A DNA stretch of 64,000 bases from Escherichia coli (lineage in GTDB: Bacteria > Pseudomonadota > Gammaproteobacteria > Enterobacterales > Enterobacteriaceae): NCBI RefSeq assembly GCF_045037415.1, contig NZ_CP173438.1, one strand, 5' to 3'. Within the stretch, counting starts at the first letter, position 1, and every line of letters begins with the position of its first letter. Made by a program: the position numbers. This document shows, piece after piece, positions 6,001-36,000 of this stretch.

Positions 6001-9000
6001 CCGAACTGGACGACGAAGAGCGTGACGAGTTTATGCAGGAGCTTGGGCTGGAAGAGCCGGGCCTGAACCGTGTGATCCGTGCCGGTTATAAGCTGCTGAA
6101 CCTGCAAACTTACTTCACCGCTGGGGTGAAAGAAGTGCGTGCATGGACCATTCCGGTTGGTGCAACCGCGCCGCAGGCAGCGGGCAAAATCCATACTGAT
6201 TTTGAAAAAGGCTTTATCCGTGCACAAACCATCTCGTTTGAAGATTTCATCACTTACAAAGGTGAACAAGGCGCGAAAGAAGCAGGCAAAATGCGTGCAG
6301 AAGGCAAAGATTACATCGTTAAAGATGGCGATGTGATGAACTTCCTGTTCAACGTCTAAATTAAATCTGCTGTCTCATGAGGTTTCACTGAATCTCATAA
6401 GAACCGTAAAACTCTATAAAATCCACGCAATTGCGTGGATTTTTCATTTCGCAATGTCTCAATTCATCTCATAACAACGCTGTCAAAAATGAGTACATGG
6501 ATGAGTACAACATTCTTCCATCTTCATTTTAAGTGAGTACAATAACGGTATAATAAATAAACAAGGCCCCGTTATGCTCACTGATACGCAATGCCGCACT
6601 GCTAAGCCGAAAGAAAAACTCTATCGACTTAATGATTTCAATGGTCTCTACCTCGAAGTGAAACCCAATGGTAAAAAGGCATGGCGCTATCGGTTTAAAC
6701 TCAACGGTAAATCCAGCATGTTTGCGCTGGGTGAGTACCCGACGGTAAAACTTGCCGAAGCTCGCGAGAAATGCGAGCAAGCGCGTAAGCAAGTCGCAGA
6801 TGGAGTTAGCCCAACACAGGCTCGTCAGTTAGATAAGATCCGCAAGGTCAACGACGCATCCAACACCTTTGAGCTAATCGCTAAAGAATGGTTGCAGATG
6901 AAAGACTGGGCCGGAATTACCAAAACGCGGCGACTGGATATGCTTGAACGTGTGGTTTTTCCCGCCATCGGTAAGCTCCCTGTCAGAGAGATCACTCCAC
7001 ACCATATACTTAAAATTCTTCAGGAAACCGCTAAACGAGGAGCACCAACAGTTGCCGCTGAAGCCCGTCGCACCATTTCATCAGTTTTTGAGTTGGCAGT
7101 CGCGACGCTTAGAGCTGATAGCGATCCCGTATGGCCTGTGCGCAAGGCCCTTCCGGCTAATAAGACACAGCACAAACAGGCACTAAATCCCCAACAAATC
7201 GGAAAGTTACTAAGCTGTTTTGACAATAGTCGTGGCTCGTATCAGGTTAACTATTGCATGTGGCTTATGTGGTGGACATTGGCGCGTCCTGCAGAAGCCA
7301 CCGAAGCAGAATGGACAGAATTCAATCTTGATAACGCCCTATGGACTATTCCGGCAGCGCGAATGAAAGCCCGCAGAGAACACGTTATTCCCCTACCCTT
7401 CCAAGCTGTCAAAATGCTCAGAACACTACAGGGATTAACCGGGCATCGGCAGCACCTTTTCCCGGGCAGAGACAATCCGCTAGGTCCAATGACATCGCAC
7501 TCACTGCGCCAGCTACTTAAAAGCCTCGGCTGGAGTGGTACATATAGCCCACATGCAACCCGGACCACAGGAAGTACCCGTTTAAACGAGTTGGGCTATC
7601 GACCTGATGCTATTGAGGCCCAACTTGCGCACGCTGATACCAACAATGTTCGTCGCACATACAACCATGCAACTTATCTTGATGAGCGTAAAGTGATGAT
7701 GCAGGAATGGGCTGATATGTTGGACAAATGGGTAGCAGGATTCAAGTAGAACTTGCTGCACAAAGTGAACCACGAGGATAGAACTTATTCCTCAAGGTTC
7801 TGGAGTGCCCCCAAGCCCGTAGACAAATCTGCCCTATAGTTTGAGCATAGGAGGAGTCTATGGGCACACCACGATTTACCCCAGAGTTTAAGGAAGAAGC
7901 TGTCCGTCAGGTCACTGAACGGGGCTATTCCGTTGCCGATGTTTCTGAACGCCTCGGCGTATCGGCTCACAGCCTTTATAAGTGGGTCCGGTCAGTCAGA
8001 CCGGATAACAGCGGGCATCAGGCGCAGGATTTACTGGATGCGCGGACGGAGATTCTCAGGCTTAAAGCGCAGCTTAAACGTACTGAGGAAGAACGGGATA
8101 TTCTGAAAAAGGCAGCGCGGTACTTTGCAAGGGAGCCCGACTGAAGTACCGCTTCATCAACGATCACCGTGAAATCTGGTCGATCGTAACAATGTGTCGG
8201 GTTCTGAAGGTCGCCCGTGCGGGATTTTACGTCTGGCTTCATCGCCCTGTTTCTGCCGGAGAAAAGGATAATCAGCGGTTGCTGGAGCTCATCCGCGATG
8301 CTTATGCACTGAGCGGCGGAGTCTACGGTTATCGCAGGGTTCACGGCGATCTTCGTGAAATCGGTGAAGTATGCAGCAGAAACCGTGTTGCCAGAATCAT
8401 GAAGCGGAACAGGATACAGGCCGTACATGGCTATAAGGTCCCGCGTGGCGTCAGGGGAAGGCCGTCACTGATAGCTCCTAATCGCGTACAGAGGGAATTT
8501 ACGATGGTAAAACCCAACCAGGTGTGGGTGACTGATATTACCTACAGTGTGCCCGGAGTTCAGGGCGGGCATGGATGCTTAAATGAACCGCGAGTCTGTC
8601 TGGAATATTGAGCCGGTAACTCACGATGAGAAACCCAACAATCCCACCGGGTGTGACGGTGGAGAACCTGAGCGGCAGTGACCTGCGGCATGCCCGCAGG
8701 GTGATGTAACCCGCTGACAACGGGGATTGAGGCGAGATCACTAAGCCGAGATGATCCTCAAGGTTAAGTACTGAAAGGCTGAAGAACATGAACCCGTTAA
8801 TCCGCCTCTGTGGGTTGAAAACGTCACCACGGCCTACGTGATCTGACAGGCCGTGCAGGAGGAACTGGCAGTGATACGTAAGCACTGCCGGTCGAAGGTG
8901 TTTTGACATGTATGCGAAACACCGGGGCAGCAGCGTCTATCACGCTTGCGTTGCTGACTTCTGCCAACTTGCGGCAAGCAAGGATAAAGAGTGCGACGGG

Positions 9001-33000: not shown

Positions 33001-36000
33001 CATTTATTTTTTTATTTACAGTTAAACCTGTAACTTGCTGTCTTGATGTACACCTAGACACTCTGTTTTTATTATGGTTTAAAGTGAAGCCTGCACGATG
33101 AATTTCTTCTACCAATATCTTACCTGGTTCGTTTTCTTTCTCATTAGAAACTAATGCATCAGGGATGTTTTTTTTGTTTGTTGAAAACGTAATGTCATCT
33201 GCATAGCGGCTGTAACTACAACCATATGTGACTGCTAGCTTTGATAATCTGAAATCTAAAATCCTACAAATAAGATTAGTTATTACTGGAGAACAAGGGC
33301 TTCCTTGCGGAAGCGATCCATCCAGGCAGGCTATCTGCGCAATAATGGTTGCAACATTTGGATGTAACTTGAAATTTTGGTTTGCAATAAAATATCCTCG
33401 CACGCGACCAAAATTAAAGGATGGGAAGAAATTCTCAATATCAATATTAAATACAATATTTTTATCTCGATGCCTCTCAGCATTTGTAATTATAGTTTTA
33501 TTCTTCTCAAAACCATGTGATACATTTTGTTTAATATTATTTTTTGCCCAAATTTCTTCCTGGCATATATATAGAAGTTCAGAAAGTCGTTGTTGAATAT
33601 CTTTCAGTTTTTCATCAGGAGCAAAGATCTCCCGCTCTCCTCCAGACTTTTTCTTTATAGTAAATTTTTTGTATTGATTTTCTGGCCTTATTCTATACAA
33701 AACATTAGTCAGAAATGTAACTTTAATCTGAAGCAAATCAGCCAGTTCAAATTTGTTACAACAAGCCTGCAGCCTTGCCAGATAGGTAGGTTTAAACATA
33801 ACAGTAAATTCCATTATTGATTATGTTAATGCACATGCAGGTACTCTTACGCATTTAACGGTGACGCCAAGATGACTTGACGGCAGTCAGAGGGCGAATA
33901 CTCCCGACCTTGTTAACACTGATTGCGATACCACAACCAACAAATCTACCTGCATGTGCCGTATTAAATTAGCATAGTCATCATATAACTCAAGCCCCCA
34001 ATCAATTTTTTTCAAAATCCTCAATAAGTTATAGATGGTTTGCGTTCTGTTCATTTCTGGCATCAGAGTGATGATTAGGCAAGTTAGCTGGGAAAATTTA
34101 TCCGGAGTATATACAAAGAAAGTAGTCAGCCCAGTTGAATCATCTAAACAAGACCAATTAACTAATTTATTTAAATGAAAAATAATGCTTTTGAGCTAAC
34201 CAATTATGCACTTAAGCTAAATTTACCGTTTTTGGGGCTAGCCCAACATCGAGGGCGCATAAGCTTTAGCCCACTTTTACTTTCCTGTTTTCTTTAGTAA
34301 CAGAAGGTTAACTATCAAATATTTTTGTTGGGCTATGTGGGCTAACAGTTTTCATATTTACGTGTTTTTTTATTCTTCTCCGGTTTCCGTTTCAGATACC
34401 GGAGTAAACAACAGCGTATAAGCCCAGGGACGTGCATGCTTGAGGTGTCTCAGCCGTGGCATACGTATCAGCCATCCCTCCACGCTGGTGGACTTTTTGA
34501 GCATTCCAGCCTCATGAAGGATTCTGCCGGCAGTATCCTTGCTGAGAGGAGTAGAACCTACGCCCTTCGCATTACGAATGCGAGCTAACTCCAAAATGAG
34601 TACGAACATGAGTACAAAAAAAATATATCATTAAATGTAGTATAAATTTCAATCAGATACAGCAAAAATTACAATTCAACGTCTAATTCCGCTAATACTA
34701 CTCTGGCGGTTAATAACGAGCCATTATGTGAGTTGCACGTAATGGCTTTTTTACGCCTGCTACGCGTCTTCTTTCAATTCTGAGTTACCAAAACTCATAA
34801 TCAGACTCCTGACAATATTAACAATGCAGCTTTTATGTGATAACAATCACAGTGCATTAACCGTTCAAGAGTTTGTCATGAAAAAAACATTTACCTTCAG
34901 CCTGTTAGCAATTGTCTTTGCAAGCCTGTTGAGTGCTTGTGTTCCCCACCATCATCACCGCCACAGCGATGGCCCTCGTGGTCCTGCGCCCTCCGGTAAG
35001 CCAATGCCACCTTCAAATGGTGGACCAAATCACGGCAGTCATGGTCGCTATTAATTAGTAATTCATAGCGGGAAAGTACATACTCTCCCGCTATCCACGG
35101 CGCTTAAACTGCCCTGCATCAATGCCATGTTGCTTCATTTTCCGCCACAGCGTAGTGCGGCCGATTCCAAGTAAAGCCGACATTTCCTGAATGCGACCGC
35201 CTGTGACTTGGGCTGCGTTAATAATTGCCTCTTTTTCAACTTCCGCAAATGACAGACTGGTGGAAAGGCGGGTGGCGCTGACATCATCTGTCGCCTGCTC
35301 GGTAAACAGATGTTCCGGCAAATCACTGACGCGAATGCGCCCATTATCACTACTCAGAGCAAGATTCTCGATGACGCTGTAAAGTTCAAAATCGTTGCCA
35401 GGCCATGCACAGGAAACCAGGCGAGCGAGGGCATCGTCATCAATTTTCAGCCGCGTAGAGAAGCGTTTTTCAAGGCTGCGTAATTTGTTATTCACCAGCG
35501 CCGGAATGCTGCCACGCCGCATACGCAGTGGCGGGATGGTAATTTCAAATGCATGCAGCGCGTAATACAGCTGGCGACTAAAACGATTTTGTTCCACCAG
35601 CATTGCGAGGTCCGCGGTCGTTGTGGCAATCACTTTGACATCAATGGGTATTAAACGCCGCGCATCCAGTCGCGTGATAACACCCTGCTTGATAACCTGA
35701 AGCAAAGCAGACTGTAACTCCACCGCCAGATATTCAATCTTTTCAAGAAACAGCGTGCCGCCGTGCGCCAGTTCCAGCCGACTCAGACGGCCATTTTCAT
35801 TATCCGTGCGATCGCCACCAATAAATTCTTCCGCCAGCGCCGCATCACCATATAACTCACAATTGACGGCGATATAAGGCCCCGCTGCACGCTCGCTTTC
35901 ATTATGAATTGCCTGACTTAGCAGTGCCTTGCCCACGCCCTCTTCTCCACAAAGCAGGACAGGAAAGCTACTGCGCGCCGCCTGGCGACCAAAATGAATC

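Follow-up and report, generated by a model that had tools for sequence, protein, structure and literature searches.

A probable site-specific integrative island at the 3' end of ychF in Escherichia coli, with repeats that are most likely integrase arm-type sites

The 64,000-nucleotide stretch of Escherichia coli DNA analysed here (contig NZ_CP173438.1, assembly GCF_045037415.1; the whole stretch is called the window) carries a long interval between the genes ychF and dhaR, with a direct repeat of 25 bp near each of its ends. The locus raises the question of whether these repeats are the ends of a mobile element or something else, and of where that element begins and stops. A first-pass annotation had described the interval as an island bounded by the repeats, and had read them as att-like junctions or integrase arm sites. 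Our analysis indicates that the interval is, with high probability, a 28,327-bp integrative island (window 6360-34686) placed site-specifically at the 3' end of ychF by the tyrosine integrase encoded at its own left end, and that the 25-bp repeats are most likely arm-type sites for this integrase, located just inside each edge.

The repeats themselves are as first described. Across the 64 kb there are exactly two copies of the motif AAAATGAGTAC-N4-ATGAGTACAA (25-bp pattern AAAATGAGTACNNNNATGAGTACAA), one at 6486-6510 and one at 34593-34617, each on the + strand; the left one stops 63 nt short of the integrase start at 6574. This is not a chance match, as none of 100 dinucleotide-preserving shuffles matched even when three mismatches were allowed, and the repeats are not common elsewhere. 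The gene content listed in the first-pass annotation was likewise borne out by the annotation of the near-identical E. coli ST131 (sequence type 131) strain ZH063, which maps on the window with an offset of 5,200 (5,199 past a 1-bp indel), and by our own searches: a P4-type integrase, insertion sequence (IS) remnants, a group II intron, a second recombinase, AlpA-like, RadC and Ner-like genes, and defence genes. It was also right that ycgV sits between ychF and dhaR in E. coli K-12. Three features had been overlooked, namely a third copy of the motif, an outer 12-bp repeat (TTCAACGTCTAA) and a relic of a tRNA-Thr gene.

Junctions and empty site at the end of ychF

We compared both flanks of the window with 5,426 complete E. 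coli genomes. The left flank matched to position 6450 in most of them, including K-12, and only to 6359, the stop codon of ychF, in a minority; the match ended at 6359 in B2-type genomes, and in 628 genomes it ran on through the integrase. On the right, the island end was present in 510 genomes; others matched from 34675, with ychF beside dhaR, and the K-12-type genomes matched only from 35098. In UPEC_U013, the sequence 3' of window position 34686 stands directly after ychF. A synthetic empty site of 1,000 bp, made by joining 5860-6359 to 34687-35186, was found unbroken and identical at 1000/1000 positions in many E. coli genomes, and was at least 80% covered in one place in 691. Because empty-site genomes join 6359 to 34687, the island is 6360-34686. 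Alignment against genomes without the island thus placed the junctions elsewhere than at the 25-bp repeats, which lie 126 bp (left) and 57 bp (right) inside them. The description of the island as bounded by these repeats was wrong, and with it the junction half of the earlier interpretation; the arm-site half is the reading supported by the results below.

Both junctions carry the same 12-bp core. TTCAACGTCTAA is an exact direct repeat at 6348-6359 and 34675-34686, with no other copy in the window. The left copy (attL core, + strand) encodes the codons F-N-V-stop of ychF and forms the last 12 nt of this target gene (5268-6359, + strand, annotated in ZH063 and SK1144), and the break relative to the empty site falls exactly here. 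The right copy (attR core, + strand) is placed by the exact repeat together with the empty-site comparison. The locus therefore has the properties of a site-specific tyrosine-integrase island: an integrase adjacent to the junction, a core repeat at both junctions, a precise empty site, and a single target used in unrelated hosts with varied cargo. G+C content, about 50% in the flanks, drops to 32-43% over the right third of the interval.

Insertion rebuilds the end of ychF and supplies it with a terminator carried by the island, pushing the original terminator to the far end. The left, or P', arm (6360-6573, + strand) contains a terminator hairpin and three arm-type sites, and is conserved in 35 relatives found through the integrase protein. 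The replacement hairpin (6418-6443; -15.5 kcal/mol, z = -5.4) is followed by a U run; a simple terminator scan missed it, apparently because the stem reaches into A/U runs, but its folding is clear. An Rfam match to Leu_leader at 6367-6446 was below threshold and was taken as an artefact of this hairpin. At the other end, the displaced native downstream flank of ychF (34687-35090, + strand) is identical to the sequence after ychF in empty-site genomes. It contains the native terminator hairpin (34718-34748, within a fold of -25.3 kcal/mol, again followed by a U run) and a small open reading frame (ORF; 34878-35054), and is followed by dhaR (35091-37010, - strand).

In many hosts the native ychF flank includes a similarly built hairpin, ATCCACGC-N4-GCGTGGAT, which gives the island arm the look of a copied host ychF flank. 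In K-12 (locus L002, 6961-7078), the 118 nt past the ychF stop codon are homologous to the left arm of the island (window 6360-6478), including the 18-bp palindromic terminator, and the similarity stops about 8 nt before the first motif. No motif, core or tRNA fragment was found as a right-end relic in K-12 near ycgV and dhaR. Islands at the same core are also present in K-12-type genomes (L110, L117 and L120). The ycgV locus of K-12, which is present in most E. coli, may represent either a decayed ychF island or the type of flank from which the arm was copied.

The integrase and the repeated motif across species

The integrase, Int1, is an intact protein of 391 aa of the P4/SXT type (6574-7749, + strand), and its gene starts 214 bp past the left core. 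Pfam searches identified the three domains Arm-DNA-bind_3 (residues 2-85, 1.6e-25), Phage_int_M (1e-23) and Phage_integrase (9.9e-20). Against the NCBIfam model PRK09692 it scored 270.6 bits, under the cut-off of 434; Int1 is therefore a relative of this family that falls outside the specific model. The nearest phage integrases are at most 40% identical to it.

We searched for relatives using the integrase protein only, with one genome per species. This identified 79 loci, and in about 47 of these species ychF ends approximately 214 bp upstream of the integrase gene. These include every locus of at least 52% identity with sufficient upstream sequence, second tandem copies excepted. Relatives of 33-46% identity were not beside ychF. 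Across genera, the median nucleotide identity is 87.5% for int compared with 83.2% for ychF, and the cargo of the relatives is wholly different, with restriction-modification genes in a 6.5-kb element, Gabija-like genes, and helicases. Past site-specific spread of this family is well supported.

Each 25-bp repeat consists of two 8-mers 12 bp apart. The consensus RTGAGTAC is represented by five sites, every one on the + strand: three occupy the stretch from the core to int, and the other two are close to the right core. The exact 8-mer TGAGTACA has four copies at the island ends and one elsewhere in the 64 kb, against an expectation of 1.15. Following the lambda nomenclature, the predicted sites of the left repeat are P'1 (6489-6496) and P'2 (6501-6508), both ATGAGTAC. 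Predicted site P'3 (GTGAGTAC, 6533-6540) is the third copy, with an extended match, GTGAGTACAA, at 6533-6542. These three stand at offsets +129, +141 and +173 after the ychF stop codon in about 33 species. The right repeat provides the predicted sites P1 (34596-34603) and P2 (34608-34615), both also ATGAGTAC, and this pair is located 59-79 bp before the right core. A repeated arm-type motif is thus present on both arms of the integrase's own element, as in the architecture of lambda. When 35 left arms were aligned, the motifs and the terminator hairpin were nearly invariant, and the bases just past the stop codon varied.

More distant relatives show that the motif changes along with the integrase. 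In the betaproteobacterium Dechloromonas sp. H13 (L041, 2807-3000), an integrase 59% identical to Int1 follows ychF with the same core, TTCAACGTCTAA, and in its arm RTGAGTAC is replaced by four to five CCGGGTA(C) repeats (CCGGGTAC). Providencia elements have the intermediate variants TGAGTAT and TGGGTAC. We regard a motif that shifts with integrase divergence while the core remains fixed as the best indirect support at present for a role of these sites in integrase binding.

On the right arm, three ends found independently of the motif, in CUVET21-1780, in a 2.3-kb element of Klebsiella michiganensis (L050) and at a tandem junction in Kosakonia (L033), retain the pair of sites and the core, with the remainder about 75% identical. 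An exact-pattern scan of metagenomes identified 43 further right ends. In most right arms a block TCAAT-N3-ATA (window 34611-34674) occurs approximately 25-35 nt before the right core; one could speculate that it is a site for a host bending protein such as integration host factor (IHF).

These observations suggest the following mechanism. Strand exchange would take place within or at the edge of the 12-bp TTCAACGTCTAA, now duplicated at both junctions, which is where we infer the exact crossover to lie. The N-terminal arm-binding domain of the integrase would bind the five RTGAGTAC sites and form a lambda-like intasome, and binding to the copy nearest int would probably also allow Int to repress its own promoter. 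Between P'3 and int, 8 nt from the former, is a TATAAT-like hexamer (6549-6554) that is a candidate for the int promoter; a simple promoter scan did not pick it up. The AlpA-like gene might act as directionality factor, and excision may still occur at the present day. The island is carried clonally by E. coli ST131 and, with Lamassu and a type I-C retron among its cargo, works as an 'integrase-only' defence island.

Weighing the arm-site model against other readings

Several observations weigh against this model or narrow what supports it. Most right ends were found by a pattern that requires the motif, and they are informative about the variety of flanks and cargo but not about motif conservation. 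Some Kosakonia relatives retain only two of the three P' copies. The right pair abuts the tRNA-Thr relic and weakly resembles a tRNA D arm, and its conservation could be partly historical; the binding of Int to RTGAGTAC is itself deduced from sequence comparison. No directionality gene is conserved beside int1: among 62 loci, the largest cluster comprised 9 loci and resembled IS debris, and the AlpA-like gene is 14 kb from int in a module that small relatives lack. An ORF of 79 aa (34370-34609, - strand), which starts in the right repeat, was considered as an excisionase and rejected, because the CUVET-type island shows no conservation upstream of 34548.

No free circular form of the island was found. 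The junctions resembling attP all came from tandem arrays within chromosomes or from contigs whose int is decayed or truncated, and none of the five attP-like contigs checked had a terminal overlap. An exact-pattern scan of viral contigs found no copy, and a synthetic attP query against plasmids returned no attP; its E. coli and Salmonella hits carry ychF and are apparently chromosomal fragments. The roughly 500 near-identical ST131 copies suit clonal inheritance as well as mobility. In the tandem arrays, a further sign of horizontal spread, right arm, core, left arm and int1 are contiguous within chromosomes (L033, ~2700-3000; L093, 1023-2243; L032; L045), and one Kosakonia contig contains two int1 copies 50 kb apart. 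Mapping of the crossover through core polymorphisms (TTC/TTT and TAA/TGA) in two-ended contigs was not decisive without the pre-insertion allele of the host.

It is possible, though in our judgement doubtful, that the island of ST131 is now an immobile, decaying relic with inactive att sites and Int, inherited clonally or moved by homologous recombination of the ychF and dhaR flanks. Over 25 kb the island matches a block in hundreds of genomes at 100% identity, among them ZH063, SA186 and MNCRE44, which we take to be ST131. Near-complete identity in some 500 genomes is what a relic would show, as are the IS fragments, pseudogenes and intron throughout; no excised form was found, and K-12-type genomes appear to hold a decayed left arm without int. 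Yet int is intact at 391 aa and 100% identical in nucleotide sequence across ST131 genomes, and both cores and all five motifs are intact. A relic of this kind would differ from the model proposed here in present activity, not in structure, and the two are compatible.

An improbable reading is that the repeats are transcriptional operators only, at which Int or another regulator acts on the int promoter, with no role in recombination. Its appeal lies in the third copy, which is just upstream of the TATAAT-like hexamer and 35 nt before the int start, and autoregulation through arm sites has reportedly been described for P4 Int and for IntS of KplE1. However, two copies are about 28 kb from int, adjoined only by relics and by no conserved gene, and copies at the far end make sense only if both ends are brought together in attP, which argues against operators alone. 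The integrase also has a dedicated arm-binding domain, and the two roles are not exclusive.

The tRNA-Thr relic in the right arm was unexpected. The first-pass annotation had noted the absence of tRNA genes at the ends, and ARAGORN indeed found no tRNA gene in the window, but a degraded tRNA-Thr(CGU) sequence extending from the anticodon arm to the T arm is present at 34547-34582 (- strand), identical at 34 of 36 nt and 13 nt from the right repeat. Of 46 right ends, about 40 contain it, with a second integrase gene, int2, or its fragments coming next in at least 11. In several relatives the relic reaches the CCA end and is followed by a P4-like int2 reading away from it (L109, 823-2236; L129, 2973-4392). 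Int2 is about 40% identical to Int1, its gene shares 86% DNA identity with integrases beside E. coli thrW, one of which is in a P4-like satellite, and it has its own repeat, GTCC(G/A)TA, between the tRNA and the gene. P4 satellite genes are present in the thrW element with the int2-type integrase. A P4-like satellite at thrW in E. coli FDAARGOS_946 (L130, 82-13030) resembles the ychF island in its cargo, with genes of a Lamassu-like ABC-three-component type immediately behind the integrase; the tRNA repeat at the right end of this satellite is degenerate and only about 17 nt long.

The right arm of the ychF family seems to have been assembled beside the left end of a thrW-type element, and the relic hints at how an integrase lineage shifts from a tRNA to a protein-gene target. 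We consider it unlikely, if worth stating, that the arm is a chimeric, two-headed attachment region in which a ychF-specific attP, made up of core, RTGAGTAC sites and int1, stands back-to-back with the left end of a thrW-type P4-like element, made up of the 3' part of tRNA-Thr, GTCCRTA sites and int2. The genes int1 and int2 would diverge from a shared region of ~330 bp, and an intact form could integrate at either ychF or thrW, depending on the integrase at work. Equally unlikely is that the family began as a tRNA-Thr element that switched to a protein gene and whose arm sites stem in part from the tRNA. In such a scheme, ycgV of K-12 would be a decayed member.

That the right repeat is merely the leftover of a tRNA-Thr gene or of the thrW-type att site of int2, with a purely historical likeness to the left repeat, is very improbable. 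The relic 13 nt away and its recurrence with int2 or fragments would fit, and the motif, taken as its reverse complement together with the flank (CTCATTTTGGAG), bears a weak likeness to the D arm of the tRNA (CTCAGTTGGTAG). But the same motif occurs three times beside int1 without any tRNA relic, at positions conserved across genera, int2 uses a different repeat, and strong tRNA identity ends at about tRNA position 28, before the motif. Least credible of all, with hardly any probability left to it, is the reading of the 25-bp repeats as duplicated crossover sites that bound the island: they are genuine direct repeats near both ends, but empty sites do not join 6485 to 34618 and lack both 6360-6485, which moves with the integrase across genera, and 34618-34674, which recurs in diverged form in related right arms, and the N4 spacers are unlike (ATGG and GAAC), which would be unusual for an overlap region.

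Related systems, backbone and cargo

Taken as a site-specific island with predicted arm-type sites, the element resembles the P4/SXT-type islands at tRNA and tmRNA genes (P4 at leuX, CP4-57 at ssrA, KplE1/IntS at argW, and P4-like satellites at thrW). Like these, it has a three-domain integrase beside the target and reading away from it, a target 3' end that is restored and duplicated at the far end, and short repeats between target and int, as in the thrW example. Unlike these, its target is the stop-codon region of a protein gene. The first-pass annotation had called the absence of a tRNA gene at either end unusual for a P4-type integrase; a non-tRNA target is not very unusual, as P4/SXT-like integrases target protein genes in SXT/R391 (prfC), SGI1 (trmE), GIsul2 (guaA) and mobilizable genomic islands (MGIs; yicC). 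Like these elements, the ychF island has a short core repeat and inserts site-specifically where a conserved housekeeping gene ends; it differs in the target gene.

In lambda attP, the arm-type sites P1 and P2 and the sites P'1, P'2 and P'3 flank the core. The ychF island likewise has two copies on one arm and three on the int-side arm, and an integrase with a separate arm-binding domain. Unlike in lambda, the arm sites are predicted and no IHF or Xis sites have been identified, and motif, spacing and integrase bear no sequence relationship to their lambda counterparts.

Hochhauser et al. 2023 (PMC10121019) catalogued the same locus in their S1 Table as E. coli defence hotspot #22 (ychF/ycgV), which apparently exists in 1,231 genomes, 99 of them with the site occupied. 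That study describes 'integrase-only' islands, which have no other mobility genes and whose mobility is unclear, and gives no att core, arm sites or integrase specificity in its main text or in the tables consulted. Enterobacterial pipolins (PMC11551731) are similar by gene kind, being bimodular defence platforms with an IntSXT-type integrase by the integration site, a smaller second tyrosine recombinase with an excisionase, and DUF2787; in contrast to pipolins, the ychF island lacks piPolB and targets ychF instead of a tRNA gene. Use of ychF as a target has been reported only for pneumococcal prophages and for Gram-positive serine-recombinase pipolins, and our literature search found no paper on the island, its att core, its arm sites or a ychF-specific integrase in Enterobacterales.

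The present analysis does not overturn current understanding. It provides exact ends and a testable att model of a 12-bp core and five arm-type sites for an island that almost all ST131-type genomes of the collection carry, and the same model applies to an island family spread across Enterobacterales. The only earlier listing of the locus was as a defence hotspot without a known means of movement. The integrase with an attP of ~350 bp could become a means of placing DNA beside ychF, at a conserved and harmless position, in many genera.

Within the island, a backbone module (17942-27391) is common to the E. coli ychF islands compared here, which otherwise vary in cargo. It is 88-94% identical in nucleotide sequence to the islands of CH10508, CUVET21-1780 and L126; the stretch 24907-26121 is missing from the match with CH10508/CUVET-type islands, which share 17942-24906 and 26122-27391. 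The small relatives in other genera are without this module, which is similar to the pipolin core except that it has no polymerase. Protein-family searches identified in it a candidate AlpA-like excisionase (21451-21648, - strand), a XerC-like second recombinase (22472-23401, - strand), RadC (23448-23900, - strand) and an SfsB/Ner-like helix-turn-helix protein (25840-26109, + strand). DUF2787 (24483-24875, - strand), three hypothetical genes and three small ORFs complete the module. The genes typical of P4 satellites (psu, sid, delta/ogr and alpha primase) were all missing from the PGAP product names and from the results of NCBIfam and PHROGs searches of about 22 island proteins. The annotation, which was the only source consulted on this point with no dedicated search run, listed no relaxase, type IV secretion or oriT. 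Nor was a polymerase such as piPolB annotated; the only ORF of that size is DUF2339, and the other large ORFs belong to Lamassu and the retron.

Two defence systems lie to the right of the backbone. Lamassu (ABC-three-component; 28268-31783, - strand) comprises LmuB, LmuC and LmuA (PADLOC 3.8e-176, 4.1e-57 and 1.4e-105), with LmuA, LmuB and LmuC adjacent in one operon. A type I-C retron (32042-33959, - strand) contains an RT-Toprim gene of the Ec67 family (32042-33799; PADLOC RT-Toprim_I-C 5.1e-214; NCBIfam NF038237 702 bits, cut-off 450). Just upstream of this gene are perfect 13-nt inverted repeats (33831-33843 and 33947-33959), 103 nt apart, which are likely to be the a1/a2 repeats framing the msr/msd RNA. 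This candidate msr/msd had no match to an Rfam family.

On the left, a first block of variable cargo (11887-17888, - strand) is annotated with ATP-binding and IS91 fragments, a DUF3999 pseudogene, the DUF2339 gene (14412-17069) and a transposase pseudogene, and is not common to the CH10508/CUVET-type islands. ISEc24, of the IS3 family (7860-11264, + strand), is split by a group II intron of 2,269 bp (8547-10815) that matches Rfam RF00029 at 10729-10815 (64.9 bits). The ltrA gene of the intron is frameshifted in the window (ORFs 9203-10297 and 10339-10725) and intact in ZH063. SK1144 lacks the intron and has an IS5 insertion at window 34306-34314 that is not in the window. Between ST131 strains, the island varies mainly through IS and intron insertions.

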